Source: an uncultured Clostridia bacterium (GTDB lineage: Bacteria > Bacillota > Clostridia > Peptostreptococcales > Anaerovoracaceae). Taken from it: DNA of 64,000 nucleotides. The notes under the pieces are model-generated. The model did no database searches. It saw nothing but the letters and a program-made list of their open reading frames with translations, and was not told where the DNA came from. The stretch lies in contig CAKQVG010000003.1 of assembly GCA_934277695.1 (NCBI GenBank), positions 109,496 to 173,495 on the forward strand. Reading direction: 5' to 3'. This document shows, piece by piece, positions 1,750-58,474 of the stretch (the stretch's first letter is position 1; each line of letters starts with the position of its first letter). The position numbers and the translations under genes are program-made.

Positions 1750-1932
1750 TTACGCTTCAGTTGCTACAACTTCTTTTCCGTCATAGTAGTTGCAGTTCGG
1801 GCAAACTCTATGTGGAAGTTTCGGTTCGTGGCACTGTGGACAAATTGCTAATCCAGGTGCTGTCTTCTTCATATTCGGTGATCTTCTCTTATCTCTTCTA
1901 GCTTTAGAAGTTCTTCGTTTAGGTACTGCCAT
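1750..1932 (-). CDS. rpmF: 50S ribosomal protein L32
   Basis: [17 protein letters not shown] plus a CPxC...CPxC zinc ribbon. The start is taken at the internal ATG (1930-1932) that gives the canonical 60-aa protein. Confidence 0.95.
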
Positions 1933-1996
1933 ATCGTAACACCTCCCTCGTGAGTATTTCCATATATTAATCCTCAATAATCGTCAACTATTAGAG

Positions 1997-2024
1997 TATA
2001 TACTGAAATTACATCATTTGTCAA
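1997..2024 (-). promoter_or_regulatory. Possible sigmaA promoter for rpmF (TTGACA-16 nt-TATATA)
   Basis: On the minus strand the -35 element is at 2024-2019 and the -10 element at 2002-1997. Motif match only. Confidence 0.35.
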
Positions 2025-2090
2025 CAGGAAATTTCAATATATTGTGCATATTTTGAGGATTTTCTGATAATTCGTCAATTCTGTGACAAA

Positions 2091-3293
2091 TTATTTGAGG
2101 CCTCTTACGATATTGTAAGTATCTCTTGCAATCATGAGCTCTTCGTTAGTCGGAACGAGGAGAATTTTAACTCTGGAATCGTCCATGGAGATAATTTTTT
2201 CCTTACCTCTTACCTTATTCTTAACAAGGTCAAGCTTAATTCCGAGGTTGCCCATTTCGTTGCAGATGAGTTCTCTCATTGGCACGTCGTTTTCGCCAAC
2301 GCCTGCAGTGAATACGATTGCGTCAACGCCGTTCATTTCAGCGATGTAAGCACCGATGTAGAATTTAACCTTATGTGCGAATACTTTGAGTGCAAGAGCC
2401 GCTCTTTCGTTTCCTTCAGCAACTGCTTCTTCAAGATCTCTGAAGTCACTGGATACGCCGGAAATGCCGAGTACGCCGGATTTCTTGTTCAGGATTTCGT
2501 TTGCCTTGCCCTGCGGAAGACCTTCTTTTTCTCTGATGAATGTAACGATAGCCGGGTCGATGTCACCGGATCTTGTTCCCATTACGAGACCTTCAAGCGG
2601 TGTGAATCCCATGGATGTATCGATACATTTACCTCTCTTGATTGCGGATACGGAAGCACCGTTTCCAAGGTGGCAAGTGATAATCTTCAAATCATCAAGG
2701 TTTACATTCAGCATCTGAGCAGCCTTTTCTGCTACATATTTATGAGAAGTTCCGTGGAAACCGTATCTTCTGATTCCGTACTTTGTATAGTATTCATACG
2801 GAAGTGCATAAATGTAGGATTCAGGCGGCATTGTCTGGTGGAACGCTGTATCGAAAACACCTACCATCGGAGTTGTCGGCATCAGTTCCTTGCAGGCTGC
2901 GATACCTAAAAGGTTAGGTGGGTTGTGAAGCGGAGCGAGTTCTACGCATTCTTCCAGAGCCTTTACAACATCGTCTGTGATTAAAACGGATGATGCATAT
3001 TTTTCGCCTGCGTGAACAACTCTGTGTCCTACAGCTCCGAGTTCGTCCATGGACTTGATTACACCGTGTTTCGGATCCTGAATTGCTGCGAGAACCTGAG
3101 CGATCGCATCTTTGTGATCCTTCATTGGAACTTCATTCTTAATCTTCTCCTGTCCAATCTTTTCGTGACCGATTACGGAACCTTCCATACCGATTCTTTC
3201 AACCAAACCTTTGCAAAGCAGATTTTCGTTTGTCATATCAAGAACCTGATATTTTAATGAAGAGCTGCCGCAGTTAATTACTAAAACTTTCAT
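2091..3293 (-). CDS. ackA: Acetate kinase
   Basis: A 400-aa ORF with [24 protein letters not shown]-like, HLGNGAS and TNEE motifs. Confidence 0.95.
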
Positions 3294-45400: not shown

Positions 45401-48400
45401 TTGCTTGCCGTTCCGCTTAAGTTATCTCCGCTGATTGCGAACTGGTATTGTCCTGCAAGGAAGGTTGTCGGTGCTCCTTCTCCTGTGAACTTCTTGGAAA
45501 TCTGAAGTGTTCCTGTTACCGGCTGCTTATACAGGTTTGCAAACGTCGGTACTGCAGCCGCTCCGTCATAGGAAACGGTTGCTTCCATTTCCGTTCCATT
45601 CTGCGCCACAGTTACCGTAACATTTACTGTCTTTCTGTCGATGACAACGCTTTCATCATTTACCGTTTCTTCTGTAATTGTATAGCGATATTCACCTGCC
45701 TCACTATAGGAAATGCTTCCGAAATCAACGCTCTGCATTCCGCTTCCTGCCGGGACTGCAAGCGTCAATTTGCCGTTTGCTGCGCCTGCCGGCATCGGTG
45801 CAGTTCCAACTGCTGTCAGCGTTAAGTGGAATCGGTCGCTTCCGATTGCAACCGTTGTACCATCTTTCGCATTTTTGTACGTCTTGTTTGCTACAATATG
45901 TACAGATCCCGGCGTTGGCTTCGTATACTTGTTTGTTACCGTAAGCAGATTTCCTGTTGGCTCTTCGCCTTCTCTGCTGTAAGTTATCGTCTTCGTGTAA
46001 GTATTCGTTGTCTCATCCAGTCCGATAACTACTGTTGCCGTAATCGGTGTTGTATCATAGCTGATTGTCGGATCTGTACCTGCTGTTTCTTCAATCGTGT
46101 AGGTGTAAGTTCCGGCTTCCGTGTAGGAAATGTCCCCGAAGTTTACAAGCGTACTTCCGCCTGCTGCTGCAGGAGTCTTCACCGTCTTCTTTGTAGGATT
46201 TCCTTCATCGGTTCCTGCCGGCATCGGTCCGCCATCAGTTTGGGTCAACACGAAGCTGAACTGACCCTCTGTGATTTCCTTTGAAATTTCTTGACCGCCC
46301 GTTTGCTCTACATATGACTTGTATACACCAAGCTCTGCCGTAGTTGAAACCGGATGGGTGTAAGTGTTTGTAATGCTCGGATTCTCAAGTTTTTCACCGT
46401 TCTTATTGAAGTATTCAACCGTGGTATAAAGGTTGTTATCCGCCCCTGCACTTACCGTCACTGTCACAGTTATCTCTTCCGTCGAATAGCCATATCCTGC
46501 AAGGGTTCCTTTCTTTTCTTTTATCTTATAAGTAAAGGTCTTGCCCGCGTCTGCATAGTTATACCTCAAAGCATCAAGGTTTGAGAAAACGACTTTGCCG
46601 GATGCATCATTTTTTTCTGTATTGAGCAGTTTATCATCGGCACTATACAGTTCAAATTCAAAGAGGTTCGCTCTCACCGGTCCTGCACTGCCCTCAATAT
46701 GCTTGAACAGACTCAATTCTGCAGAAGCTTCTGCGTACTGAATGTTTGTGATTGTCGGCTGTGCTTCTGTGAGAATTTCTCCGTTGCGAATATATCGCAG
46801 ATCTGCCTGCAGTTCCGTGCCGCTTTTCGCAGTTACAAGTACTGAAAGTTTTATCGGTGTTTCATCATATTTAATATTTTTGTCTTTTCCGGCTGCTTCG
46901 CGAATCTCATAGCTGTAATTTCCTTCTTTTTCGAAAGAAATTTCGCCAAAATCAATCGTCCCATCTGCACCTGCTGTAACAGTTTTCTCGAACTGCGGTG
47001 TGCCTGCTTCATTTTTTATTGTAAACTTGAACGCACCTTCGCTGATGTCTCCGCCGATTAAAAGCTTTTTCAGTTTCGGGTTAACAGTAACAGCTTTTGG
47101 AACTGTGCGTTTATTTACAAAAGTCGGCACCTTTCCATCTTCGAGATTTACACCGTTCATATAATAGATAACTTTGCCTACTATAAGTTCTTCTTCCGGA
47201 CATGTTACCTCGACAGTAGCCGTTATCGTCGCCGGATCCTTGGTTATAAAGATGGAGGAAGGCGTTCTTTCCGTAATCGTAAATGTATAGGTTCCTGCTT
47301 TGCTGATTCCCTCTCGTGTAAAGGAAACCTTTCCGTCAGCATCATTGGTTACGGTTTCAGTTATCTCTGCACCTTCATCATTTTTGTATGTAACATCAAA
47401 CATAAAGTCACCCGCATTAACGGAAAGCAGCTCATCCGCTTCAGATTTTAATTGCTTAGCGAACTCTAGTTTGATGCTCGTTGAACCCGGCGGATTATAA
47501 GTATTGCTGATTTTAAAGTTCAAAGTCTGGTTACCGTTTTTGTCTTCGGTTTTTTTTGTTTCCTCTATTATGCCTTTCGTGTATTTCGTTACTTTTGTTT
47601 CTGTGATGGTATAGATATATTCTCTGCCATCCGTATCATAGCGCGGAAGATTTTTTACCGTGAACATCCAGTTTTCGGAAGCTTTTACAGTAATCTTCCT
47701 CAGCTCCTTATTATTTTGTAAAAGTTTCAGTTCAATAGATTCCGGTCTGCTTCCATATTGATTGTTGCCGTCATACCAGTATTTCTGTCCGGAAATGTTG
47801 ACGCTTGCCGCTAAAGTGTTCGTTACGGTTAATTCCACAAGACCCTCAGTTTCCGTTACCTGTGTTGTCGCCTTATATTTTTCATTTCCGCTTTCTTCTA
47901 TTGAGTATACAATCTTGCTTCCGTCCTCATTATATACCGGAAGTTTGCCAAATTCCTTTTTCCAACCCGTTAAGGCATTGAGAGTATCACTCCGTTCAAT
48001 GACTCCATCGGCTAAAAGCTTGATATTGATTGAAGTCGGTCTATTTGCATCATCTCCGTCTTTCCAAACTTTTGTTACTTTAAGCTTTGTAAGTAAGGTA
48101 TTGGTAAAATTTCCGATTACATCTGCGTCTTCTTCGCATTTGTATCCGCCTACCGAAACTTCCTCTACCTTATACAGAATCGGAAGTCCGTTTTCATCAA
48201 TTGCCGGAAGATCATCAAATACATACTTCTGAATATGCTTAATTCCATCGCTTTCCTGTCCGCTTGGAATTGCAACATCCGTCCATGTTGGTGTCTTATC
48301 GGTTACCTTTACCCATCCGCCGCCGCTATATTTCAGGAGTTTTAACTGCGGTACATCGTGTGTTTCCTTTCCGTCGTTCCATGTCTTTAGACCGCTGATT

Positions 48401-51400
48401 TCCTTTTTCTGCGTATTGACAAATGTGAAAAGCGGATTTCCCTCTTCGTCCGTTCCTTCATCTGACAATCTGATAGTATAGCCTGTAACGGAATTTTCTT
48501 CTTCTGCCGTATAGATTAAATCCTTGCCTTCGTATCGAATCGGAAGCCCTGAAATTTTTGCAGTCCATGTCTTGTCATCCGACTCTGTCCATGCGATGTC
48601 ACTATGAACTTGTTCATAGCCTACCTGTCCCTCCGCGGTCTTTCCAATTACACGAATCTTTACACCGCCTCCAAGCGCAGGTCTTGTATAGCCGGTAATA
48701 TCTTCCCATTTTTTCTTTAAGGAAATTTCTTTTCCGTAAATTTTGATGCCGACCTTAGCCGGTTCTGCATACAGGCGCTGAGATGTGTTTGTACCCTTAT
48801 ATGCATAGCCGAAGGAGTTCCATGCTATTTCGCCGATTGCGGCATCTGTGCCGACTTTTGCATCAAAAGTAACCGTAATAGTTTCACCTCGAGCTACATT
48901 AACACCCGAAAGATTGATTCGGATTACGTTGCTTCCTTCCTGCTTTTCGTTTGTCCAGTCATTGCCGGCACCTGCCCAATCATTTTTTGTAAATGCAGCG
49001 TCTGCTACAGCCTCTTTATAGCTAATGACAGCCTGACTTGTGATGTCCATGTCTCCTTTTTTAACAGTTACCTTTGGAGAATCCGCCAAGTTGACGGAGA
49101 ACTCACTTTCTCTTCCGGCATAGGTTTCCAGTGTGCCGGTATCTCCAACCTGCGGAAGTTTATCAATCAGCACAAAATCAGACAGTGCGGATGTGCTGCT
49201 GTTTGTAACTTTTAAGGTATATATCGCAGAGTCTCCTGTCGAAATCGCTTTCACATAGTTCGCTTCGTCACTTCCCCATGCGGTTTCACTTGCTTCATTG
49301 GTAACTCCTTTCAGAGATGTCGTTTCAAAACCCAAGGACGGATATACATAGTCTTTGGCAGTGATTCCCACGGTTCTTTTTTTCGAGTCACGTACGGGAT
49401 TCCCTGAAATTACAGTCTTAATTTCCCCTGCATTTCCGGAGGCATCTATTATTTCCAGTTTGACACTGTTCTCATAGTTCTTGCTCCTGTAAAATGCGTT
49501 ACTGTCGTAGCGTGCCAGAATGCGGAAGGTTGTTGTTCTATTCGCATCCAAAGTTACTTTATCTGCGATAACTCTCTGCACCTTTCCTTTTTTTGCATCT
49601 GTTACGGTTTCTACGGTCCCTGCAATGTCATCCCATTTGTCTGTTTCTGCGTTATACCGCTGCATTACATATTTTCCGTTTTCTTCCGTAATCGCTTTAT
49701 ATGGGTCTGGAAGCTCGTCTGTAATCCGTACATCGCTGCGTTGGATGCCCCCATTCTGCACTTCAATTTTCCATTCGACAACATCTGCAAAGTTCACTTT
49801 CTTGTTACTTGTCGAAAGTTCAGCACGAACCTTATCATTTGCTGCTTTCTCTTTATCTGCTGTGTCAATCGTATTGATTGTGGAAAGTGTTGCTTCATCA
49901 AAACCGTCTGGATACTTCGCCGCCTGATATTTGCCGGAAGAAGTTTTCGTAATTCCCAAGCTGCTTTCCGGCGGATAAATGTTTACTGTGCTGGAGAACT
50001 GTGTATTGCTGAGCTTCACACACTCCCCTTCGTTTCTCTTCGCATTCTCATTTTGATCTGCCGGTCTGCTCTTGATTGTGATGTCGTCATTGATTTCAAA
50101 CGGATTGCTCTTATCTTTGGTTGCCGCAATGTTCAAAACCGCCGTGTTCGTCCAAACATAAGGATCCGAACCGGAGCGATCGATAGGAACCGCATAGGAG
50201 AATGTCAGACCTTCTCCGGGTTTAAGGACTATGTTTCCGCCTTCACCATTAACAAAGCATTCGTACGTTCTATCAAACTTAATTTTATCAGTCCACCATT
50301 TTTTTGCTATTGTTTGCTTCAAATCTACACAATATTCTGGACTAAGATACTTGTCCCTCAGTTTTGCAAAATATGCTTCTATAGGATCGTTCAAACATTT
50401 AGAAATACCGTTGCGGTCGTACAATCCATTATATCCATAGCGCAGCATTGCCTTGACAGGACGTAAATCGTAATTATTAGCACTATATCCCTCTTTTTCC
50501 GTAGAGCCTGATAGCAAAAAGCTCCCAGAATCGTATCCTAATGCGTTTTGTGGGAATAAATCTTTAATATTTTTAATAACTAAGTCTTCATTACTGCTCT
50601 CATCGTTAATGACTGTGATTCCGTAGCGAACTACATCGACTTGACGATATATGAAATTAAATTTAACGTTTTCTCTATATTTACTATCTTCCCATTGGTT
50701 ATATGCTCTACTTTCCCAAACATTTAAATCACCAGACGTTGTATCGTCTCCTGTTTGATTTGTAGTAGTATATGCTCCATAGCCTGTTGGGATATTACCT
50801 GCTGAGTTTAGACCGTTCCATTTAGGATATACACTTCCGAATCCGAGTACGCTCTTCTGCATATTCAGGCGGTTCTTACCTTTTTGGTAGTAGTATCCGG
50901 TTTCCGTACTGATTTTATCCTCACCTACTTGATAAGAAGCTTCATTATGGATAATTGTCGAATTATTATGCGTCTGATTCCAGTTGCTCTCATCAATCAC
51001 ACCTGTGTTCTTATCCTTCTGGCTTTCCGCAAACCTTTCACCAACAATCAAAGCATAGGTAATGCGGAGTGTGTGATTGCTCGGTATTTGAAATACGTTT
51101 CCGCTTTCATCAAAGTATGTAAACGAAACTTTTTTTGCTTTGTTTGAGTCGATTTCGCTTTGTAAAACTGTAATCGACTCTTCTCCATCTGCTTTCAGAA
51201 TCCCTTGGACAGCCGCCTTGTCTCCCGATGCATCAAGAAGCACAGCTGAAATCGGATAAGTGCCTGCCTTAAAGCCTTTGGTCGTCATATTGTCAACAAT
51301 CGGATTGTCTGTTCCAATCTGCGTTGGTTCGCTTCCCGTGTTTTTATATTCAATTTTAAACGTTACCTGATCTCCTACAGATAGCGGATTTTTCTCATTA

Positions 51401-54400
51401 TCAACCGCTTTCCCGTCAACCATGGCGGCCTTCCGTAAGGTCTGTCCTCCTACGGTTCGAATGGCGGCTTCTGCCTCAGCCTCATATGTGTCATAATAGA
51501 TGGTCGCAACATTCTTTCCCACTCCGCCTCGATTCTGATCTGGTATGGTAACGGTCACCTTCGGATTAACCTTTATTTCCATAGAAGCAACATCGCCGCC
51601 GTCTTCAAACTCCCATCTGATGGCGATTGGACGGGCAGATTTGTTCGAGCTCAGGACAAGATTCGAATCTTTAAGAATGTAGGAACTGGTGCATTTATAC
51701 TGTGACGCATTGTTGAAACTGAAAGTTTTCGTCAAATTTTTCCCATTTGAGGTCTTGTCATATACAATAACCAGCTTATACTTTTCAATTCCGGTATAGG
51801 CTCCTGTCCGTATGTCCTTTACTTCGGAAAGTCCGTAAATTCCGCTGAGATTGTCTACCAATCTATAGTTGCTGACTGCCGCACTCGTTCCGAAATCCGA
51901 GATTGTGAAGGTTGCGGTGTCTCCGGCCTGCAGTGCAGTGTTTGGCGTTACTTTCTTGCTGATTGTCAGTTCTGTGCGCTCGAAATTATGTTTAACTTCA
52001 GCTTCCAAAGTCTTCGCAATTCCGGCTTCTCCATACACAAGCGTTACATGATTATTATCATCACCCTCTTCACGTTTGCCTAAGAATCTATTTTCGAAAT
52101 CTCCGCTGCTTGGATAGTCTACTTCAACCATTATCGTCAGCGTATCGTTCGCATATACTTCAACTTCTCCCCATCTTAAGAAATTCTGCGCAGGATTCAG
52201 CACCGGTGTTATATTAAATTTCCTTCCGGATGTGAATTTTGCACTGATTATCTTTACATTGCCGCTTGGGTTTGATTCTTTATCGTACAGACTGTAATAT
52301 GTGTTACCATTCACTTGTCCCGCACGTGGTAATCTATCAATCAGGTTTGCCTTATATACAGAAAGATTGCCGCTATTTTTGATTTTTATTTCGTATACGA
52401 GCTTGTCCCCTGAATTGACCTCGCATTCTTTTTCTGTGTTTCCTCTTGTTCGCTGTCCATTTATTGAATAGATGATCTTAGTCAGTGATGGATCCGGTAC
52501 CAGCCCGGTTGTCGTGCTGGTATACTCTCCGTCAATGTATGCATTGTTTGACACCGTTAATGCGTCTGCCGCTGACGAAACATACCCTACATAGGAAAGC
52601 TTTCCTGTTTGGAACAAGGAAGTTTCCGTCGCATATCTCAATTCTTTAATTTTCCATTTTATTACGAAATTGCCTTTACTATCTTTTTCATATTCTCCGG
52701 AAATTTCACATGTTGTTTTCCCCGTAATGTAGGTCCCCGAAATGGTTCCGCTCTCTTTATCTTCCTTCTCCGGACGCAGACCACCGCTCATAACATCCGT
52801 AATTATTTTTTCACCATCGGTTTCAAAATCATAGTCATCACCGATATTTTGGATATCAAGTTCATAAGGTATGGAATATACACCGTCCCCAACCGGTGTG
52901 CTCTGTGTGTTTTTTACCTCTTTCTTTAGTTTAAATGCAAGTTTACGGTCTTTTACCTGCACTGAAGCAGCACTGCGTTTTTCTTTATCCTCATTAATGT
53001 ATACGGTATTGGTTATCGTATCGCCAGCCTTCAATCCGTCTTCTTTAATGCCTGTAAGTTTTGCAGTATATGAAATGACTGCCTTGTGATAGCTGCGTTT
53101 GCTGAGTGTCTGGGTTTCGAAAACCAAAACATTGCTGCCGCTTGCGTCTTTCCTTTTTGAAACAATAATGTTCCTGCTGCTCCGCACTACATTTTGAGAA
53201 TCGTAATACAAAATTCGTGCTTCTGATGAAACAGAGTCTATGTCAATGTACTTTGGTAACGTGTCGACTGCCGTAAAATCCATAGGCATGCCACTGTCAT
53301 TGGTTAATGTGATTGAATATCTCACGCTGTTTCCATCGGCAACCGGCTTATCTCCGATAAGGTATGCGCTTTTCTCAATTTGACGCACCGATGCACCGGT
53401 ATAGTAAACATCGGTAACTTCGTTTGTTTTATATTCTTTGCCGCCCATCTTAATGGTTGCCGCATTTTTAATCCTTGTCTCATCTTTCAGTTCCTGACCT
53501 TTTTCGTTCTTATCTTTAATTTTTACGGTAAATGTCAGTTTGACTTCTTTGTCCTTAGGAATGGATACATTCTCTGCTTGGTACGCTAATGTCCATACAC
53601 CGTTGTCCTGTTTGAATGCCTTATCAGGCACAGCTGTTGTTTTTTCTGTTCCATTTATATCATATCCTTGCAGCTTTGCACTGCCGTCCACATATTCGAG
53701 GTAGCCGGACAGCACATCTGAGAACTGAAGCGTCCTGTTGATTGGATATTCGGAATCGTTTGTAACAATAAGCGTGTAGCTAATTTTCTCACCCGGTGCT
53801 ACATTAGCCGGATTGCTGCTTCTCTTTGATACGGACACAGAGTCTTGCGGATCATTGATGATCGTCTTCACATTGCCTTCGCTTCTTGTTTCTTCCCCAA
53901 ACAGGGATGATGCAATGAACTCTGTTTCATTTGTAATTGCAAGTTCTGCACCCTTTTCTTCGTAATGCTTCTTGATTCCTTCAATATTCGCCAGAATATT
54001 CTTTAATGTAACCTTATATTGCGGGTCATCCACCTCGGCTTTAACCGACTCTTCATTGCTCTTTTTTATCTTAAACTGCAAGATATTACCTGCCACTGTA
54101 GCATCGCTGACCATTGCGTCAACTTCTGCAATAACCGTATCTCCTGCTTTAATAACCGACCCGTTGTCCTTACCTTCAATTGTTATATCTCCTGTCGGAT
54201 ATGAAACATATTGTGGAAGGGTTATTCTCTCATTAATGCTGTACTCTTTTGTGAAAATCTCATTTGAAGTCCCTTGGTTTAAGGATTTATTTGAAATTAC
54301 ATAGATAATGTCATTTACAACTTTATTGTTTTTTACATTTACATTATTTTGTGATGTCGAGACTTCAACATTTTCCCATTCGAAGTCAGCAACAAATTTT

Positions 54401-54999
54401 AAAGTGCCGCCGACTTTCGTTTCAGTCATGTAGATTCCTGCGGTTGTGATTGTAATGTCATCTTTGGTAATCGTCGCTTCAAGTGGTTTTTCTTCCGAAA
54501 CTTCCGTAATTCCGTTCGGGAAAGATACCAAAAAGTCGTGTGATAACGAGCTTCCTGTTTTTAAATCAAATGTGAGGAAATAATCTTCGCCTTCCTTGAT
54601 AAGCGAAATCATGGTCTCGTTTTCAGAAATGCTTGTTACGCTACTGTCTTCAAAGTCATGTATATAACATTTTCTTTGTCCGTCCTCTTCTGCAAAAAGC
54701 GTTGCCGGAAGCTTGATTTTTACATTTGAAGTCGTTTGCCGGGTAGAAGCAATACTTGCTTCTAATCTGAAAATACCCGTCTTCCCCATTTCAATAATGG
54801 CTTTCCTTCCGTCGCCATCAAGATCGTCATCGGACGGTATACAAGTAGTGCCGTCCGCATCTACAGCATACATTGCAACATATACCCCTGTCTCGACAAC
54901 TTCATCATCTGCATATGTACTGATACTCAGTGAGCTCAGTACAAGAATGAAACTAATCACAATGGCGATTACTCGTGAAAGATTTTTGTTTGTCTTCAT
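39433..54999 (-). CDS. Giant (5188 aa) cell-wall-anchored multidomain surface protein / adhesin
   Basis: A single uninterrupted 15,567-nt ORF with a GGGAGAG RBS. It has an N-terminal signal peptide, repeated DUF11/TIGR01451-like segments, four CnaB-like domains and twenty Spy0128/FctA-like domains. The C-terminus carries TPKTG, a hydrophobic helix and a basic tail. Confidence 0.92.
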   Translation of the reverse strand: MKTNKNLSRVIAIVISFILVLSSLSISTYADDEVVETGVYVAMYAVDADGTTCIPSDDDLDGDGRKAIIEMGKTGIFRLEASIASTRQTTSNVKIKLPATLFAEEDGQRKCYIHDFEDSSVTSISENETMISLIKEGEDYFLTFDLKTGSSLSHDFLVSFPNGITEVSEEKPLEATITKDDITITTAGIYMTETKVGGTLKFVADFEWENVEVSTSQNNVNVKNNKVVNDIIYVISNKSLNQGTSNEIFTKEYSINERITLPQYVSYPTGDITIEGKDNGSVIKAGDTVIAEVDAMVSDATVAGNILQFKIKKSNEESVKAEVDDPQYKVTLKNILANIEGIKKHYEEKGAELAITNETEFIASSLFGEETRSEGNVKTIINDPQDSVSVSKRSSNPANVAPGEKISYTLIVTNDSEYPINRTLQFSDVLSGYLEYVDGSAKLQGYDINGTEKTTAVPDKAFKQDNGVWTLAYQAENVSIPKDKEVKLTFTVKIKDKNEKGQELKDETRIKNAATIKMGGKEYKTNEVTDVYYTGASVRQIEKSAYLIGDKPVADGNSVRYSITLTNDSGMPMDFTAVDTLPKYIDIDSVSSEARILYYDSQNVVRSSRNIIVSKRKDASGSNVLVFETQTLSKRSYHKAVISYTAKLTGIKEDGLKAGDTITNTVYINEDKEKRSAASVQVKDRKLAFKLKKEVKNTQSTPVGDGVYSIPYELDIQNIGDDYDFETDGEKIITDVMSGGLRPEKEDKESGTISGTYITGKTTCEISGEYEKDSKGNFVIKWKIKELRYATETSLFQTGKLSYVGYVSSAADALTVSNNAYIDGEYTSTTTGLVPDPSLTKIIYSINGQRTRGNTEKECEVNSGDKLVYEIKIKNSGNLSVYKANLIDRLPRAGQVNGNTYYSLYDKESNPSGNVKIISAKFTSGRKFNITPVLNPAQNFLRWGEVEVYANDTLTIMVEVDYPSSGDFENRFLGKREEGDDNNHVTLVYGEAGIAKTLEAEVKHNFERTELTISKKVTPNTALQAGDTATFTISDFGTSAAVSNYRLVDNLSGIYGLSEVKDIRTGAYTGIEKYKLVIVYDKTSNGKNLTKTFSFNNASQYKCTSSYILKDSNLVLSSNKSARPIAIRWEFEDGGDVASMEIKVNPKVTVTIPDQNRGGVGKNVATIYYDTYEAEAEAAIRTVGGQTLRKAAMVDGKAVDNEKNPLSVGDQVTFKIEYKNTGSEPTQIGTDNPIVDNMTTKGFKAGTYPISAVLLDASGDKAAVQGILKADGEESITVLQSEIDSNKAKKVSFTYFDESGNVFQIPSNHTLRITYALIVGERFAESQKDKNTGVIDESNWNQTHNNSTIIHNEASYQVGEDKISTETGYYYQKGKNRLNMQKSVLGFGSVYPKWNGLNSAGNIPTGYGAYTTTNQTGDDTTSGDLNVWESRAYNQWEDSKYRENVKFNFIYRQVDVVRYGITVINDESSNEDLVIKNIKDLFPQNALGYDSGSFLLSGSTEKEGYSANNYDLRPVKAMLRYGYNGLYDRNGISKCLNDPIEAYFAKLRDKYLSPEYCVDLKQTIAKKWWTDKIKFDRTYECFVNGEGGNIVLKPGEGLTFSYAVPIDRSGSDPYVWTNTAVLNIAATKDKSNPFEINDDITIKSRPADQNENAKRNEGECVKLSNTQFSSTVNIYPPESSLGITKTSSGKYQAAKYPDGFDEATLSTINTIDTADKEKAANDKVRAELSTSNKKVNFADVVEWKIEVQNGGIQRSDVRITDELPDPYKAITEENGKYVMQRYNAETDKWDDIAGTVETVTDAKKGKVQRVIADKVTLDANRTTTFRILARYDSNAFYRSKNYENSVKLEIIDASGNAGEIKTVISGNPVRDSKKRTVGITAKDYVYPSLGFETTSLKGVTNEASETAWGSDEANYVKAISTGDSAIYTLKVTNSSTSALSDFVLIDKLPQVGDTGTLETYAGRESEFSVNLADSPKVTVKKGDMDITSQAVISYKEAVADAAFTKNDWAGAGNDWTNEKQEGSNVIRINLSGVNVARGETITVTFDAKVGTDAAIGEIAWNSFGYAYKGTNTSQRLYAEPAKVGIKIYGKEISLKKKWEDITGYTRPALGGGVKIRVIGKTAEGQVGYEQVHSDIAWTESDDKTWTAKISGLPIRYEGKDLIYTAEEENSVTGYTIRLSDEGTDEEGNPLFTFVNTQKKEISGLKTWNDGKETHDVPQLKLLKYSGGGWVKVTDKTPTWTDVAIPSGQESDGIKHIQKYVFDDLPAIDENGLPILYKVEEVSVGGYKCEEDADVIGNFTNTLLTKLKVTKVWKDGDDANRPTSINIKLLADGVIERSDTLNALTGWKKEFGKLPVYNEDGSKIVYSIEESGNEKYKATTQVTETEGLVELTVTNTLAASVNISGQKYWYDGNNQYGSRPESIELKLLQNNKELRKITVKASENWMFTVKNLPRYDTDGREYIYTITETKVTKYTKGIIEETKKTEDKNGNQTLNFKISNTYNPPGSTSIKLEFAKQLKSEADELLSVNAGDFMFDVTYKNDEGAEITETVTNDADGKVSFTREGISKAGTYTFTITERTPSSIFITKDPATITATVEVTCPEEELIVGKVIYYMNGVNLEDGKVPTFVNKRTVPKAVTVNPKLKKLLIGGDISEGAFKFTIKNEAGTPQFEKTVTAGADGTIDFGEISFEKEGNYSYEIREAAGKDKNIKYDETPIKLSVLVTAKSGTELQADLRYIRNGEILTEAQPTITNIQYAEASAELSLFKHIEGSAGPVRANLFEFELYSADDKLLNTEKNDASGKVVFSNLDALRYNYADAGKTFTYKIKEKKGTLAGYGYSTEEITVTVTVSAGADNNLYTTVEYFNKNGEKLENPSITNTYTHPVSTTAELGVYKSYVEQTGGQEISKEITEGQFSFVLTQTDGGPMPAGTDEGNPTKKTVKTPAAAGGSTLVNFGDISYTEAGTYTYTIEETAGTDPTISYDTTPITATVVIGLDETTNTYTKTITYSREGEEPTGNLLTVTNKYTKPTPGSVHIVANKTYKNAKDGTTVAIGSDRFHLTLTAVGTAPMPAGAANGKLTLAVPAGSGMQSVDFGSISYSEAGEYRYTITEETVNDESVVIDRKTVNVTVTVAQNGTEMEATVSYDGAAAVPTFANLYKQPVTGTLQISKKFTGEGAPTTFLAGQYQFAISGDNLSGTASNDANGKVSFTLPTYTKAGTYTYEIRETAMTPEDVSISLSSEVIKATVTVSESANHVLSVSSIKYELNGEETSAPAITNTYTKPSPTEVVLEAEKSLRATSGDAPTLAAGAYSFEVKDADDKVVAEAKNAADGTITFPQIAINDAGTYTYTISEVIPDDKETGITYTTDKYKATVTAARKADTNELEITSVVYEKADGTAAGKASFVNTYTPPTGTQAGLAITKTLSGKTLSANQFSFVLKNTSAPQGVTLAADKTVKNAANGRVDFGQIGYEKEGTYEYTITEVKEGKAGYTYSDKTVNVTVVVTKEADNTLKADVSYKIDGAATSSPTLANTYTKPSPIQAELGVKKSYENADSGEAMAIAKDQFRFVLTAKNNAPMPEAAKGADTMTVTTNAAAGGKTDVLFESISYTEAGTYTYTIAEAAGTDPTISYDTTPITATVTVTLDEATNKYNASVSYSRNAKAQPELFTVTNTYTKPTPGAVKLVANKTYTNAATKETVAIGSDQFHLTLTAVDDAPMPKGAANDKLTLAVPAGSGTQSVDFGSIAYEDEGTYRYTITEEAVNDESVVIDSKTVNVTVSVVQNGTEMEATVSYDGAEEVPTFANLYKQPVTGTLQISKKFTGEGAPTTFLAGQYVFLISGNNWNGTASNDASGKITFNLPKFTEAGTYTYEIKEKGFVDGMEDPSITVNKTATITATVTVTESADHVLSISSIKYKLDGTETSAPAITNTYTKPSPTEVVLEAEKRLEATIGSVPTLAAGAYSFEVKDADGKVVSTAKNAKDGTITFPKITIKDAGTYTYTISEVIPANKETGITYSTDTYKVTVTAARKASENTLEITSIVYEKADGTAAGKASFVNTYTPPTGTQAEIEVSKELTGKVLTANMFSFTLTNTKVPAGETLAQPVTVKNDADGKVKFTLNYNKDVDADYEYEIREVNDGKAGYEYSGKVIKVTVHVGKNADNKLVTTVTYSMDGTETQDPTFVNTYTKPNPTEAELGVNKLYVNADGGAAMAIAEGQFSFVLTAKNNAPMPNGAVDGKKTVTTNAAASGKTDVLFGSISYTEAGTYTYTIAEEKGSNASISYDTTPITATVVIGLDETTNTYTKTITYSRDGEKSKVDGWLTVTNTYTLPSSTSLIPEVTKRLLDYTKEDYPKDRNFGNDVFTFNLYKSAANGIQGDLVETKTTSAKNVSEETIQFRTRSYTEDRELTEYYLIKEVKGNNPSITYDTEGILLTVKVEKVGNTLQATAIYTKAEKTGAEAKVIINTYTKPSEISVTPKVTKKLVNADGTARNLGDDIFTFELYEAKDENGTLAEDATPIETIKTTKEDVAQELLKFKPISYTKDIEPGDKVTKYYVIKEAQGDNISINYDTTAIVYKVVFEKDAKDNKLKATEAYTIGGNPTNNPTITNTYKTPTPAETALTVEKYFYDKTAKADKKFGREVFTFELFKAEDENGTLAEGATAIDTKQASGADISRQTLTFLTLRHEQDMKPGDSVTEYYLIREKAPTNPSIKCENPEVIAKVVYSKAKAAGAYSDAANKIDVSVSYKMKGETAFAEGQKTVTNLYTEPEPTSFTPEAAKKLTGRTLKDGEFTFELLDAEGNVIDTAVNDADGKIRFKELTFTEDADAKDYVYSVREVKGNLSAVIYDKSVYTIKIHVIKNAQNKIEITEVKYVKDEKDVDNITFSNTYSPSVPSVVVDITASKQFEGGVLNGKDFTFKLEPVNKTEGYVRTAYNEKDGSINFGKFIYFREGVYEYILSEVAGSDRNIGYDKAQIKVTVTVRQDRYKLVADVKYDKNGQETNVFVNKNGIDPDKTSVRLYAQKILQGGELEANDFTFRLTPLNGAPGKSQQVKNTAAGDVVFDSITFTEVGTYRYEIRELQMSSKKNISYDKQKVYATVRVYRDEYGQLLAEVSYTKNGAETNTFINKGRDDDGKPPVKPGDRDSDGKFPQRPDDGTPKTGDEMMFTLWMLICLGAGAGLFAASRKNHKE
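39523..39537 (-). other. Sortase recognition motif TPKTG within the C-terminal sorting signal
   Basis: GTPKTGD is followed by EMMFTLWMLICLGAGAGLFAA and RKNHKE-stop. This is the classical tripartite sorting-signal layout. Confidence 0.65.
42019..46356 (-). repeat. Intragenic tandem super-repeat: two full units of ~1.95 kb (five domains each) plus a partial third unit
   Basis: Unit A spans about 46356-44399, unit B about 44398-42442, and partial unit C 42441-42019. Equivalent positions are offset by exactly 1944 nt (for example KPTPG codons at 45921 and 43977; antisense ORFs 45448-45825 and 43504-43881 are near-identical). Confidence 0.85.
54910..54999 (-). other. Signal peptide of the giant surface protein
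   Basis: MKTNKNLSRVIAIVISFILVLSSLSISTYA/DD has a basic n-region, a hydrophobic core and an AxA-like cleavage site. Confidence 0.7.
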
Positions 55000-55053
55000 T
55001 TTTTCTCTCCCATCATACTCTTTTCAATTCTATCCTATAAATTACATTTTCGA

Positions 55054-55671
55054 TCATTCAAAAATTTGATTTTCGACTTGATCCTGAAGATAGGCTTGGC
55101 GTAAGCCGTTCTCCTCGGCATATTCACGGAATGTGTCCCCGTATGTTTCTTTAAAGCCTTCCTCGGTAAGCCCGTTAGCTTCCATGAGCTGTGCCAAATA
55201 TTGCTCGTACTCTGCATCCTCTACATGAATGTCTTCAAGTGCCGCAATTCGGTAGAGAACTAAAGTCTCCGCAATTTTATTCTTGCAAAAGTTCTCGGAA
55301 TTCTCATCAAATTGTACTCTTGTAATCGACATTTCCTTGTCCAAAAAATCATCCAAATTGTCATATCCGGAGTTTTTTGCCAGTTTCTCGTAATTTGCAA
55401 GGTTTTCTTTCTTCATCTTTTCAAGTTCCTTGTCCGGATACTTAAATATCTCGGAATATGCAACAATTTCATTCCATATTTCATCCTTTTCCTTGCCCTC
55501 TTCTCTGTCTGCCTGTATGATCGCCTTATAATCACATACTTGCACATATTCATCCGTGCTCGCATATGTTTCCCAGCCTCTTTTTGCTGTCAGTATCAAA
55601 TATGCGGCAATGCAGATGACTGTCAAAAGCAGTACTGCGGAAGTGACTTTTAATACCTTCTTGTCTTTCAT
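55054..55671 (-). CDS. Membrane-anchored protein with a trigger-factor C-terminal-like (chaperone arm) domain
   Basis: Start taken at MKDKKVLKV (ATG at 55669-55671, preceded by AAGGAAGAAAGAG). It has one N-terminal TM helix and then an Asp/Glu-rich helical domain resembling Trigger_C/SurA_N. The ORF-track start at 55749 has no RBS and would translate through the inverted-repeat hairpin. Confidence 0.6.
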   Translation of the reverse strand: MKDKKVLKVTSAVLLLTVICIAAYLILTAKRGWETYASTDEYVQVCDYKAIIQADREEGKEKDEIWNEIVAYSEIFKYPDKELEKMKKENLANYEKLAKNSGYDNLDDFLDKEMSITRVQFDENSENFCKNKIAETLVLYRIAALEDIHVEDAEYEQYLAQLMEANGLTEEGFKETYGDTFREYAEENGLRQAYLQDQVENQIFE

Positions 55672-55708
55672 ACTCTTTCTTCCTTTTTTACTTCTAAAAA
55701 TAATAACG

Positions 55709-55728
55709 GACAGAATCAATATTCTGTC
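55709..55728. repeat. Left inverted repeat (IR-L) GACAGAATCAATATTCTGTC
   Basis: It is the exact reverse complement of 56052-56071. Internally it consists of 8-nt inverted arms around the asymmetric centre CAAT. Confidence 0.95.
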
Positions 55729-55762
55729 TACTAGTGTAAAACTATCCACTTTAGCTTACTAA

Positions 55763-55791
55763 ACTATACACAAAACCATAGAAAAAATCAA
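55763..55791 (-). promoter_or_regulatory. Candidate sigmaA promoter inside the IR-bounded segment, pointing at the chaperone/adhesin genes (TTGATT-17 nt-TATAGT)
   Basis: On the minus strand the -35 element is at 55791-55786 and the -10 element at 55768-55763. Motif match only. Confidence 0.4.
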
Positions 55792-56051
55792 TAGTTTTTG
55801 GTAATTTTGTTCAAATAATGTTTAAATTTACCTCACCGTTTGCACAAAAAAGAGGCTGAAGGATCGTTTGTACATACTCAAGGAAAGAATCACGGCAACA
55901 CAAAAAAGCCAATCAAAGGGAATTTGCATTGGTTTGTGTTTTATATGCAAAAAAATCCAATGTTTTACCGACGTTCTTGCAAAATTCATGTCAATCCGCG
56001 TTTTTGGGCTTTCTATTCCGATTAATGATTTGAGCAGTTTCAAGTTTAAGG

Positions 56052-56071
56052 GACAGAATATTGATTCTGTC
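56052..56071. repeat. Right inverted repeat (IR-R) GACAGAATATTGATTCTGTC
   Basis: It is the exact reverse complement of IR-L. It is followed on the plus strand by T7, so it also looks like an intrinsic terminator for rightward transcription. It lies 30 nt from the recombinase stop codon. Confidence 0.95.
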
Positions 56072-56101
56072 TTTTTTTGCGCTTTGTTTGGATGCAAGCC
56101 G

Positions 56102-56923
56102 TCAGCAAATTAATCTCAGTTTTTCGAGTTTGCGTCTGTGCTCCTGCCCTGTCTCGCGCAGATAGATGCGTGTCGTTTCGATGCTGCTGTGTCCCAGCAC
56201 GTCCGCAAGTTCGGCAATGTTTCCGCTGACTTTGAAGAACATTCTTGCAAACAGATGACGCAGGTTGTGCGGAAAGACCTTATCCGCTTCCACCCCGGCA
56301 GTTTTACACAGCCGTTTCATCTCCGCCCAGATTTGCTTTCGCCCGATGGGTGTTCCGCATCTTGTTTTAAAAATAATTCCTGATAGAATTTTATTTTGTT
56401 TGATGTACTTTTTCAGTTTTTTGCATAGTCTGTTCGGAAGCAGAATCAGCCTGTCTTTTCCCTTTAAGCGGATGTGCAGGCTGCCGCACAGCACACTCTC
56501 GACGGTCACATATTGAAGTTCCGATATGCGCATGCCGGTTGAACCTATCGTCTCCATAATCATTGCCAAACGCTCCCTGCCTTCTGCGCGTGCCGTATGG
56601 ATGAGTTTCTCATATTCGGCTTTCGTCAGCTGGCGTTCCGCCTTTATGAAGTTGCTTCTCTGTGTCCTTACATACTTGAGGCGGTACTCGGGTTTTTGCA
56701 TAAAGTCTGCATAAGCATTCATGGCTGCAAGTGCCGCATTAATTGTTGCGGCTGCGTAGTTTTGCGACAGCAGATAATCTTTCCATCCACATAACTTTTC
56801 TTTTGTGAACGCAGCGTCTTCTTCCTCTGCCCATTTTTGAAACGCTGAGACATCGTGTACATACTTTTCGATCGTTGCAGGGCTGAGTTCCTTTTCCTTT
56901 AGGTAAATTCTGAATTGTTTCAT
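56102..56923 (-). CDS. Tyrosine-type site-specific recombinase/integrase
   Basis: A 273-aa ORF with an N-terminal SAM-like core-binding domain. The catalytic signature is GMRISEL (Arg), HNLRHLF (HxxR) and GHSSIETTRIYL (His...Tyr). Confidence 0.9.
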   Translation of the reverse strand: MKQFRIYLKEKELSPATIEKYVHDVSAFQKWAEEEDAAFTKEKLCGWKDYLLSQNYAAATINAALAAMNAYADFMQKPEYRLKYVRTQRSNFIKAERQLTKAEYEKLIHTARAEGRERLAMIMETIGSTGMRISELQYVTVESVLCGSLHIRLKGKDRLILLPNRLCKKLKKYIKQNKILSGIIFKTRCGTPIGRKQIWAEMKRLCKTAGVEADKVFPHNLRHLFARMFFKVSGNIAELADVLGHSSIETTRIYLRETGQEHRRKLEKLRLIC

Positions 56924-56960
56924 TTTTTCACCCCCTTGATTATTCTTTGCAATAAAAAAA

Positions 56961-56993
56961 GCATTCCAGGTTATTAATTTTAACCTTAAATGC
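56961..56993. terminator. Bidirectional intrinsic terminator between the Rpn fragment and the recombinase gene
   Basis: An interrupted hairpin GCATT..AGGTTA/TAACCT..AATGC is flanked by A7 (56954-56960) and T7 (56994-57000). Confidence 0.6.
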
Positions 56994-57043
56994 TTTTTTT
57001 ATTGATATTTGTCTGATATTTGAGGAGTTTCCCTGTCTTTCTT

Positions 57044-57298
57044 TTAAAGCTCGGCGATTTCCTCTTCGCTGAGTCCGGTGTTCTTCGCAATCACGTCAAT
57101 CGGGATGCCGGATTCTCGTAGGCTCTTGGCAATTTCGCATTGCTTCTGCATCGCACCACGTTCAGCACCGGCGCGTTCGCCTTTGGTGAAGCCGGCACGT
57201 TCGCCTTCCTCGTAGCCGTCCAGTCTCGATATTTCAAGATCTTCTTCTCTTGTTAATTCTTTGAATAACATCTCTACAATCTCCGTTCCTTGTTTCAT
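57044..57298 (-). pseudogene. 3' fragment of an Rpn/PD-(D/E)XK putative transposase gene
   Basis: Bases 57064-57289 duplicate 57595-57796, which is the C-terminal coding part of the neighbouring intact gene, at high identity. The fragment also has a 24-nt internal duplication (GERAGFTKGERAG). The N-terminal nuclease domain is missing. Confidence 0.7.
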
Positions 57299-57490
57299 TC
57301 GGGCTGGAATTTTCTGGGTTCATGCGGTTTTTACATTTTTTTGCCCTTTTTGACCCATTTAATATAACAAATCCGCCTTCTGAGGCGGTTTTACCGCTCA
57401 TTTCACCCATAATCCTCATGTTTCGGCTCTTTGGGGTGGGCTGGGCGAAGAACCCGAATACAATATGTAGTGTCCATCTTCGCTTGTATA

Positions 57491-58474
57491 CTATATGTCG
57501 GAAGTCTCCAAAGAGCATCTTACATTTTTGCCTTCAAAACGGCATTTTAATGTAATTATGGGCTGCACGGGCAGTCCGTGCAGCTCGATTTCTGCTTCGC
57601 TGAGTCCGGTGTTCTTCGCAATCACGTCAATCGGGATGCCGGATTCTCGTAGGCTCTTGGCAATTTCGCATTGCTTCTGCTTCGCACCACGTTCAGCGCC
57701 GGCGCGTTCGCCTTCCTCGTAGCCGTCCAGTCTCGATATTTCAAGATCTTCTTCTCTTGTCAGTTCTTTGAATAACATCTCTACAATCTCCGTTCCGTAC
57801 TTATCCAGGAATTCCGTGAGAATGCCTTCCTTCTTGCATTTGTCAAGGACTTCGACAATCACATCGTTTGTCAGTTCGCTGTCCTCTTTGTAGCTTCGCA
57901 TGATTTCCACGAAGCGGCTGTACTGCCTAAGCGTCTCACATCTTCCAAGGATTTCTGAGTTTTTCTCTGTATTGATATTATACACCTTAACGATGAGTTG
58001 TAAAGCATCCTCTTCGTCTTTTTGCTTCTCCCCGAGAAAGGAATCCGAGAGGCGCAGTTCCCGGTAGGCAGGAAAATCCTTCGTGCCGTTGTAAAGTACC
58101 ACGAAGGAGGGACGTGGTATCATCAGGCGTTTCTCGCGGTAAAGCCGGGTTGTATCAATCATGCGTTTTAGGACGGTGGAGATGTACATGAGGTCCCTAA
58201 GCGGCATGTTTTCGTTGATGCTTGACTGGTGCTCGACGAGCACCACAAATCGGCCGCCCAGGACAAAGGCAAGATCATTCTTTAGCGTGCGGAAGAGGAC
58301 ATCTTTGATTGTGACGATGTCAATCGGCGCGCTTTCATCATAGTTTGCATCAAAGAGGGCGTTGTAGAGTTCAATCAGTTTCGACTTGTCGTGAAAGATT
58401 GTGACAAAGACGGAATCCTTGTAGGTTCGTTTGACTTCCTGCGCTTGCGTCTGCCCTTGTGCTTGTTTATTCAT
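57491..58474 (-). CDS. Rpn-family recombination-promoting nuclease / putative transposase (PD-(D/E)XK)
   Basis: A 327-aa ORF with YKDSVFVTIFHDKSKLIELYNAL and FVVLVEHQSSINENMPLR, which are typical of this family. The C-terminus appears extended by about 35 aa through a hairpin sequence when compared with the fragment copy. Confidence 0.82.
   Translation of the reverse strand: MNKQAQGQTQAQEVKRTYKDSVFVTIFHDKSKLIELYNALFDANYDESAPIDIVTIKDVLFRTLKNDLAFVLGGRFVVLVEHQSSINENMPLRDLMYISTVLKRMIDTTRLYREKRLMIPRPSFVVLYNGTKDFPAYRELRLSDSFLGEKQKDEEDALQLIVKVYNINTEKNSEILGRCETLRQYSRFVEIMRSYKEDSELTNDVIVEVLDKCKKEGILTEFLDKYGTEIVEMLFKELTREEDLEISRLDGYEEGERAGAERGAKQKQCEIAKSLRESGIPIDVIAKNTGLSEAEIELHGLPVQPIITLKCRFEGKNVRCSLETSDI

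Follow-up and report, generated by a model that had tools for sequence, protein, structure and literature searches.

Invertible promoters that lie beside tyrosine recombinases and control surface structures are well established in bacteria, with fimS, the Bacteroides invertons, and the RecV switches of Clostridioides difficile as familiar examples. The fimS element of Escherichia coli is a 314-bp invertible promoter element with 9-bp repeats that controls type 1 fimbriae and requires IHF and Lrp, and FimB and FimE are single-domain invertases of ~200 aa. In C. difficile, the tyrosine recombinase RecV inverts short intergenic segments (those of cwpV, the flagellar switch, pdcB, and others) to turn surface-protein, flagellar, and signalling genes ON or OFF; this single recombinase acts at several distant sites with dissimilar, imperfect repeats, and at cwpV, a terminator forms in one orientation. 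Here, we describe a 323-bp segment beside a tyrosine recombinase gene in a 64,000-nucleotide stretch of DNA from an uncultured Clostridia bacterium (contig CAKQVG010000003.1; this whole stretch is referred to as the window). We propose, with a probability of roughly 0.88, that this locus is an inverton-type phase-variation switch in which the recombinase would flip the promoter-bearing segment and thereby turn a giant adhesin operon ON or OFF. A first-pass annotation of the window had suggested that the adhesin operon is governed by an invertible promoter linked to a tyrosine recombinase, with the assembly showing the ON orientation, and the comparative data presented here support that suggestion.

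The locus shares with the C. difficile RecV switches a Firmicutes host, a tyrosine recombinase, and a short intergenic segment upstream of a surface gene, but it is set apart from them, by description, in that each switch has a dedicated adjacent recombinase and a site that is conserved throughout the family of homologous cassettes reported below. Like fimS, it consists of an invertible promoter between short inverted repeats, with an adjacent tyrosine recombinase and an adhesin under its putative control. The sites are built like those of the XerC/XerD-dif, Cre-lox, and Flp-FRT systems, with inverted arms around an asymmetric centre that is matched between partners and whose polarity would dictate inversion, and the best relatives of the recombinase in both sequence and structure are XerA/XerC-like proteins and XerD. 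In contrast to Xer-dif, lox, and FRT, the sites occur as inverted pairs 200-430 bp apart beside the recombinase gene, their arms span 7-8 bp, and up to five cassettes were retrieved from one metagenome-assembled genome (MAG).

The hCom2 study (Microbiome 2025; PMC11892184) describes the invertons of Bacteroides and other gut commensals as repeat-flanked invertible promoters, often located beside a tyrosine recombinase, that control capsules, fimbriae, and surface proteins. The present locus and its relatives resemble these in having an intergenic promoter between short inverted repeats with surface or adhesion cargo, a nearby tyrosine recombinase oriented so that the switch cannot regulate it, and many cassettes per genome, with both orientations represented in metagenomes. 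They differ from the Bacteroides invertons in their host, which is a lineage of uncultured Clostridia (Firmicutes bacterium CAG:238 and relatives), in their promoter, which is of the sigma-70 form TTGnnn-17-TGnTAnAAT rather than the Bacteroides type, in having their own recombinase for each cassette with the first site 0-50 nt past its stop codon, and in a near-palindromic site with conserved 8-bp arms and a locus-specific centre. The same study reports an inverton group, 139, of 33 invertons from 17 strains, 32 of them from Clostridia, and nearly all of these adjoin a recombinase of the tyrosine type assigned to invertase group 35. The examples given, from Intestinimonas butyriciproducens and Clostridium sp. 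D5, are ~230-255 bp long, and their orientation shifted across culture passages and between attached and supernatant (planktonic) cells. Host class, size, and recombinase adjacency all agree with the cassettes described here, and I. butyriciproducens also harbors a member of the present family (L053). Group 139 and invertase group 35 are therefore probably the same family, likened by description rather than by inverted-repeat motif or sequence. A search of the literature returned no description of this locus, of a switch in this organism, of the site anatomy, or of the promoter-and-hairpin architecture, and PMC11892184 likewise contains no description of the locus, the organism, the site anatomy, or the giant adhesin.

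Inversion of the segment between assemblies

The 20-nt sequence GACAGAATCAATATTCTGTC at 55709-55728 (the left inverted repeat, IR-L) and its exact reverse complement GACAGAATATTGATTCTGTC at 56052-56071 (the right inverted repeat, IR-R) bracket 323 non-coding bp (55729-56051), exactly where the first-pass annotation had placed them. A repeat search ranked this pair as the top inverted repeat of the window, growing with its flanks to 27 nt at 89% complementarity with arms 323 nt apart. The pattern GACAGAAT-N4-ATTCTGTC, with up to 2 mismatches, occurs at only two places in the 64 kb, compared to an expectation of 0.02 from 100 shuffles, none of which contained two or more, so the segment is bounded by perfect 20-bp inverted repeats that are not a product of chance. 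Each repeat folds as a hairpin with an 8-bp stem and a 4-nt loop and, when the two are compared as direct repeats, their sole difference is the 4-nt centre, CAAT in one and ATTG in the other. IR-R, the recombinase-proximal site, reads GACAGAAT-ATTG-ATTCTGTC on the + strand and GACAGAAT-CAAT-ATTCTGTC from the recombinase side, and it fits the family consensus given below; its position and centre are the same in flipped and unflipped assemblies. The recombinase-distal site, IR-L, is separated by 37 nt from the start codon (ATG) of the operon's first gene, which lies downstream.

Comparison of orthologous loci, which the first-pass annotation had named as a check on the proposed inversion, revealed that the segment is precisely inverted in 4 of ~24 independent assemblies, with the flanks and the site centres unchanged, as is characteristic of an inverton. 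The window orientation is found in ~20 contigs (L001-L010, L012, L013, L116-L118, L126, L135, L136, and L122/L134) and the inverted one in four metagenome contigs (L113, L121, L141, and L142), whose recombinases are 96-97% identical to that of the window. The more distant strains in this set, which were found by a search with the bare 20-bp site and among contigs encoding the identical 205-aa product of the first operon gene, have recombinases 96-97% and segments 87-91% identical to those of the window. The downstream flank of the window was confirmed in L113, L142, and L116-L118, so that two of the four flipped contigs are confirmed to carry the adhesin operon.

The clearest comparison is between L113 and the unflipped contigs L116 and L117. 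Past the distal site, L113 and L117 agree for 2,655 nt with 0 mismatches (0-1 across L116 and L117), a stretch that takes in the 205-aa gene and the beginning of the adhesin gene, and the 363-bp block from repeat to repeat in L113, including the entire 323-bp segment, is the exact reverse complement of that in L116 and L117, again with 0 mismatches. A single-nucleotide polymorphism (SNP) at site position 19 is located in the proximal site of L117 (ATTCTGGC) and in the inner arm of the distal site of L113 (GCCAGAAT). This SNP moves with the segment and the outer arms and centres do not, which indicates that the inner arm is part of the invertible DNA and that the point of exchange lies inside the 20-bp site. 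This pattern is the one that conservative site-specific recombination would be expected to produce.

Several related contigs carry rearranged versions of the locus. In L011 (1725-1744) and L127, from 'Firmicutes bacterium CAG:238' with a 98% identical recombinase, the segment is precisely absent, and in L011, just one 20-bp site, with the distal centre ATTG, adjoins the flank on the recombinase side and is itself followed by the downstream flank and gene of L012; this looks like a deletion between the two sites that would leave a promoterless, locked-OFF locus. In L111 (1400-1965), as in L114, L115, and L137, the adhesin operon with its 205-aa gene is present along with the distal site and, in the ON orientation, 206 bp from the promoter-proximal part of the segment. 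The proximal site and the recombinase are missing, and in their place, upstream and on the opposite strand, is a gene for a 1,016-aa SpaA/TQ protein, so that these contigs appear to have been rearranged into a locked-ON state. L126 (reverse strand 1812-3020) has the same 20-bp sites and an 88% identical segment in the ON orientation beside a recombinase that is just 58% identical, which suggests a mosaic exchange between cassettes.

The recombinase

The recombinase gene (56102-56923, - strand) encodes a 273-aa Xer-like tyrosine recombinase, a candidate invertase, and its stop codon lies 30 nt from IR-R, as the first-pass annotation had described. The protein consists of an N-terminal SAM-like core-binding domain (PF02899, Phage_int_SAM_1, E = 2e-10) and a catalytic domain (PF00589, Phage_integrase, E = 8e-26, 91 bits compared to a cut-off of 27). 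It has the Arg-Lys-His-Arg-His/Trp-Tyr residues of the tyrosine recombinase superfamily in the motifs GMRISEL (Arg), KGKDR (Lys), HNLRH (His-x-x-Arg), GHSS (His), and RIY (Tyr), and these catalytic motifs align with its best solved relatives, the XerA/XerC-like protein 4a8e and XerD (1a0p).

The scores of the recombinase are far below the NCBIfam cut-offs of XerA (146 vs 220), XerC (TIGR02224, 115 vs 335), XerD (TIGR02225, 124 vs 330), XerS, the integron integrases, and the FimB/E-type invertases, indicating that it belongs to none of those families. We considered and rejected the possibility of a XerC/XerD chromosome-dimer resolvase, given the sub-threshold equivalog scores, the inverted site pairs that adjoin the gene, and the occurrence of several paralogues per MAG. 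An invertase of the FimB/FimE type was likewise rejected, as the protein, with its two domains and greater length than FimB and FimE, scores only 20.7 bits against the cut-off of 221 for NF007370 and 18 against 222 for NF007371. We infer that the recombinase is the invertase of the segment because its linkage to the site pair is invariant.

A family of homologous cassettes

A scan for the recombinase over one genome per GTDB species returned 80 loci, three of which are close relatives, including 'Firmicutes bacterium CAG:238' (98%), with the other 77 being 48-56% identical. The latter derive mostly from Oscillospiraceae and other Clostridia, both MAGs and isolates, and include the genera Intestinimonas, Flavonifractor, Lawsonibacter, Agathobaculum, Butyricicoccus, Evtepia, and Acutalibacter, with as many as five of the retrieved copies coming from one MAG. 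In 77 of the 80 loci, the homologous recombinase is directly followed by a site of this type. A complete site pair is present in 52, where the first site begins 0-50 nt (usually 0-2) after the recombinase stop codon and the second, its reverse complement, lies 200-430 bp downstream (mode ~250 bp). In a further 15 cases, the contig stops no more than ~330 nt from the first site (no more than ~150 nt in 11 of these), an indirect hint of coexisting orientations, as this is what an assembler yields when both are present in one sample.

The site logo from 49 non-redundant loci is GACAAAAT-NNN-T-ATTTTGTC. Among these loci, there are 29 distinct 4-nt centres, only one of the 49 being palindromic, and partner sites have 0 differences at positions 8-13 compared to 55 mismatches in the arms. 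This distribution fits a model in which the arms would bind the recombinase and flank a crossover region that needs homology between partners, and it also fits the idea that the polarity of the crossover centre, which is inverted between partner sites, would dictate inversion. The claim of the first-pass annotation that each site is composed of inverted arms around an asymmetric CAAT/ATTG centre, with the two sites in inverted polarity, is thus borne out by the family consensus and by the matched centres of partner sites.

Promoter position is conserved to a similar extent. The best sigma-70 match lies 30-60 nt from the repeat that it faces in 44 of 49 segments, compared to a mean of 7.3 and a maximum of 13 in shuffles, and the mean top promoter score is 11.8 in family segments compared to 7.6 in shuffles. 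The typical family promoter is TTGnnn-17-TGnTAnAAT with its -10 box usually ~45 nt from the repeat; in the window, this distance is 34 nt. Of the 44 positioned promoters, 13 face the downstream gene (ON) and 31 face the recombinase (OFF). The most stable hairpin in most segments lies behind the promoter, often with A and T tracts. By a strict count of tails, just 6 of 45 hairpins are two-sided terminators, a low number because the predicted stem often takes in the A and T tracts, and a T-tract is present on the strand read in the OFF orientation in 20 of 45; given the strict count, we restrict the claim to a recurrent stable hairpin behind the promoter. Beyond close relatives, the interiors of family members are not homologous, save for this promoter-and-hairpin architecture.

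Precise inversion was also found at homologous loci, in sets of contigs encoding exactly the same recombinase. For P0061, whose recombinase is 56% identical to that of the window, ten contigs have identical sites, and the 230-bp interior is in one orientation in eight and in its exact reverse complement in two. For P0003 (recombinase 70% identical), three contigs have one orientation and seven the other, and the synteny is that of the window, with a gene for a CAP-domain protein upstream and one for a giant SpaA-domain adhesin downstream. An all-versus-all blastn comparison of segments across species returned matches that were nearly all in the same orientation, which at first appeared to argue against inversion. 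This can be reconciled because both the promoter positions and the same-protein contig sets display both orientations; close relatives share a preferred assembled orientation, and both are seen in the family as a whole.

The gene that follows the distal site runs in the direction of the recombinase and, in most loci, starts within ~75 nt of that site. Its products include BspA-type LRR/SLH proteins, VWA/Cna_B or SpaA adhesins, DUF4379 proteins, and occasionally another recombinase, so that, as judged from domain content, the cargo consists mostly of large surface proteins of the kind typically subject to phase variation. One first gene recurs in many loci (L091-L100, L014, L018, L031, L035, L039, L040, L053, and others) and encodes a protein of ~300-380 aa in which the treble-clef zinc-finger repeat DUF4379 occurs four times (PF14311, with E = 2e-82 for the L014 protein); the next gene in L091 encodes a 4,144-aa fn3-repeat protein. 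In L019, L021, L039, L055, L057, and L076, one of the two sites, proximal or distal, is present in two or three tandem copies spaced by 22-62 nt opposite a single partner, and these copies may be alternative inversion end-points or past duplications. In L123, L125, L133, L138, and L140, the identical GACAGAATCAATATTCTGTC flanks an unrelated 218-bp segment beside a recombinase that is 50% identical, which indicates that distant members of the family use the same site sequence; a second, more distant recombinase homologue is encoded just downstream in these contigs. Among pairs of cassettes from the same genome, a hand count found that 21 of 22 differ in their centres, which is by our estimate about what a random draw from the observed centre diversity would give and thus provides no evidence of selection for orthogonality.

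The predicted promoter, the hairpins, and the downstream operon

The segment in the window contains a predicted sigma-70-type promoter, TTGATT-17-TATAGT (55791 to 55763 on the - strand), in the place that the first-pass annotation had given for it, matching 9 of 12 consensus positions. Its -10 box ends 34 nt from IR-L, and it is directed outward through IR-L toward the start codon (ATG, 55671) of the first operon gene. When the segment is read in the other orientation, its best promoter scores 5.3 compared to 9.3, so that none is comparable, and the window is on this prediction in the ON state. Behind the promoter is a central hairpin (55898-55940), flanked by an A-tract and, on its other side, a T-tract, which folds at -14.3 kcal/mol on the + strand and -13.4 kcal/mol on the - strand (z about -2.1) and is terminator-like on both strands, with a T-tract after it on each. 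This hairpin may serve as an insulator of the operon from recombinase read-through in either orientation. A scan of 55000-57500 against Rfam (E <= 1) found no known RNA element, with only two sub-threshold chance matches (mir-1252 and SAM_alpha).

Both repeats also have features of terminators. The IR-R hairpin is followed on the + strand by a run of seven T (T7, 56072-56078), with which it forms an intrinsic-terminator-like element (-13.1 kcal/mol, z = -3.0) that would halt transcripts leaving the segment toward the recombinase gene, the direction of the promoter in the OFF state. The IR-L hairpin is followed on the - strand, the strand of the ON transcript, by the T-rich tract CGTTATTATTTTT, and a terminator scan classed it as terminator-like. 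The same scan omitted the IR-R hairpin with T7 (56052-56078, + strand), which by eye is the better of the two on the stated criteria, indicating that the list from the scan is incomplete. The first-pass annotation had predicted that, after inversion, the promoter would run into a strong terminator, and this stands insofar as the promoter in the flipped contig L113 is followed by 34 nt, the proximal-site hairpin, and then T7, but the ON transcript would also meet a terminator-like hairpin at IR-L.

The putative operon downstream of IR-L consists of two genes. The first (55054-55671, - strand), which has a good ribosome-binding site (AAAAGGAAG), encodes a 205-aa chaperone-like protein with an N-terminal membrane anchor and a weak match, below the cut-off, to the trigger-factor C-terminal domain (PF05698, E = 7.5e-4); the identical protein is encoded downstream of the switch in many metagenome contigs. 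The product of the second (39433-54999, - strand) is a surface adhesin of 5,188 aa that has Cna_B and FctA domains (PF05738 and PF12892), an N-terminal signal peptide, and a C-terminus composed of TPKTGDE, a hydrophobic stretch, and the basic tail SRKNHKE (39433-39680). The giant adhesin lacks LPxTG, and its TPKTGDE end is a variant sorting signal of the sortase type, which we take to resemble the (S/P)PxTG sorting signals of clostridial sortase substrates. No tandem repeats with a period of up to 500 were detected in the adhesin gene, and its pattern of open reading frames (ORFs) suggests longer internal repeats.

On the other side of the recombinase gene, a palindrome at 56950-57004 (24-nt arms, 92% complementary, flanked by A and T tracts) separates the recombinase start codon at 56923 from the ORF upstream of it, leaving ~27 nt for a recombinase promoter. 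Further upstream, 57044-58474 (- strand) contains a gene for a 327-aa Rpn-family, YhgA-like 'transposase_31' protein and an ORF of 75-84 aa with a weak HTH_Rpn_C match. Beyond this region, contigs with an identical recombinase differ from one another (L001 compared to L003), and many end there (L004-L010), which implies that the region is variable or repeated.

Proposed mechanism and alternative explanations

It is clear from our results that the segment is precisely inverted between assemblies, both here and at homologous loci, and that the site, the position of the promoter, and the linkage to the recombinase are conserved across the family. In the mechanism that we propose, the Xer-like recombinase would recombine the inverted sites at 55709-55728 and 56052-56071, each with 7-8-bp palindromic arms around an asymmetric 4-6-bp crossover centre, and so flip the 323 bp between them, which would carry one outward sigma-70 promoter 34 nt from one end and a hairpin behind it that is terminator-like on two strands. 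In the ON state of the window, the promoter would read through IR-L into the two-gene operon of the 205-aa chaperone-like protein and the 5,188-aa sortase-anchored Cna_B/FctA adhesin. In the OFF state, the promoter would face the 3' end of the recombinase gene and meet the IR-R hairpin and T7, and the central hairpin would stop read-through from the recombinase gene, leaving the operon promoterless. We also infer that the promoter and the terminator-like elements are functional and that switching is reversible within a clone.

It is improbable, although of the alternatives this one is the easiest to accommodate, that the segment inverts but that its main output is another, either an antisense or small RNA acting on the recombinase or the modulation of read-through from a different operon promoter. 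The promoter faces the recombinase gene in 31 of 44 family members, and in most of these the site abuts the stop codon with no terminator between them, so antisense transcription of the recombinase is plausible; the terminator-like hairpin met by the ON transcript would also be in keeping with such an output. However, the 37 nt between IR-L and an ATG with a good ribosome-binding site leave no space for a second promoter, the downstream genes of the family are co-directional with the recombinase and mostly begin within ~75 nt of the distal site, and the cargo is a typical phase-variable surface protein. Antisense control of the recombinase and control of the operon are, moreover, mutually compatible.

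The first-pass annotation had listed two other readings, a 363-bp element resembling a miniature inverted-repeat transposable element (MITE) and a pair of terminators, neither of which explains the flips, the matched centres, or the position of the promoter. The first of these, in which the 363-bp unit is a small mobile element beside an integrase and the two orientations are independent insertions, we consider very unlikely. The terminal inverted repeats, the small size, the variably present Rpn/transposase-like neighbor, and the precise 'empty' version in L011 and L127, with one site and no segment, are all what such an element would leave. Nevertheless, there is a single copy in the 64 kb, the interiors within the family are unrelated beyond their promoter-and-hairpin architecture, the element always occurs with its own recombinase, and flipped copies have the position and centres of unflipped ones, with no target-site duplication. 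The 'empty' locus in L011 retains a full 20-bp site with the distal centre, as expected of a deletion between sites rather than of an uninserted target. With one copy in the window, non-homologous interiors, and no duplication, we rejected membership among MITEs or small non-autonomous transposons.

The possibility that an intrinsic-terminator hairpin simply occurs twice, once rightward and once leftward, with no recombination, accounts for the T-rich tracts that follow both hairpins on the outward strand (T7 after IR-R and CGTTATTATTTTT after IR-L), but it leaves the exact inversion of the interior between constant flanks unexplained, as well as loops that are reverse-complementary between partners in 52 GTDB loci and differ between loci and a first hairpin that abuts the stop codon of one recombinase family, and a terminator between a promoter and its gene would be odd; we regard it as highly improbable. 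Equally remote is the notion that the inversions arose by RecA-dependent homologous recombination or replication slippage beside an unrelated Xer protein or phage integrase, since, even though inverted repeats of any kind can occasionally recombine, 20-bp repeats are very short for RecA-dependent recombination, the conserved arms, partner-matched centres, and coupling to the stop codon persist with recombinases that are ~50% identical and point to co-evolving enzyme-site pairs, and the recombinase is far below the Xer equivalog cut-offs and is present, unlike XerC/D, in up to five copies per MAG among the loci retrieved.

Several observations weigh against the proposed switch. Ten metagenome contigs with the identical recombinase are all in the window orientation, as are the nearest GTDB representatives, L012 and L013, so that all 13 assemblies with an identical or nearest recombinase are ON. 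The flipped copies sit behind recombinases that are 96-97% identical, which makes switching in the exact strain of the window an extrapolation, and flipped and unflipped copies come from separate assemblies. An exact search of JGI metagenomes for one predicted flipped junction returned no match, a null result that the search with the bare 20-bp site explained, since the flipped relatives carry SNPs in the segment part of that pattern. The conserved arms of merely 7-8 bp are shorter than those of lox, FRT, and dif, which are 11-13 bp, and the promoter of the window, with only 9 of 12 consensus positions, has no clean TGn extension. The ON transcript crosses the IR-L hairpin and then CGUUAUUAUUUUU, and, as this hairpin with its T-rich tract was called terminator-like, expression in the ON state may be attenuated. 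Finally, no promoter was identified for the recombinase gene itself.

Implications

Although invertible promoters of this kind are already known, Clostridia invertons are far less characterised than those of Bacteroides, and the family-level anatomy described here is a useful, incremental addition. It provides a searchable signature for Clostridia invertons, consisting of a recombinase stop codon, GACAAAAT-NNNT-ATTTTGTC, 200-400 bp with a promoter ~45 nt from one repeat and a hairpin, and a reverse-complement site, together with a simple site model of short arms and a partner-matched centre. The compact design of one protein and 20-bp sites could also serve as a synthetic inversion switch.

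More tentatively, the locus may be one member of a very large family of self-contained, portable cassettes in Oscillospiraceae-like Clostridia, each composed of a recombinase and a 200-400-bp promoter segment, that share the arms GACAAAAT/ATTTTGTC, derive their specificity from their own 4-6-nt centre, and are shuffled as a unit before surface-protein genes, a possibility to which we give somewhat less than even odds. The genes that follow near-identical cassettes differ between the window and L012 and L013, L126 has the same site and segment beside a recombinase that is just 58% identical, and a protein search returned 7,991 matches at E <= 1e-30, an upper bound on the family because ordinary Xer-type recombinases are included. 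If this is true, several independent switches could operate in one genome without cross-recombination, and the cassettes would represent a natural set of orthogonal, compact, single-protein inversion switches.

For the organism itself, these results mean that DNA inversion probably turns ON and OFF a 15.6-kb operon for a sortase-anchored adhesin in a lineage of uncultured Clostridia from the human gut. The presence of the adhesin would accordingly not be readable from gene content alone, as assemblies of this organism differ in state, with ~20 ON, 4 OFF, and some apparently locked by deletion.

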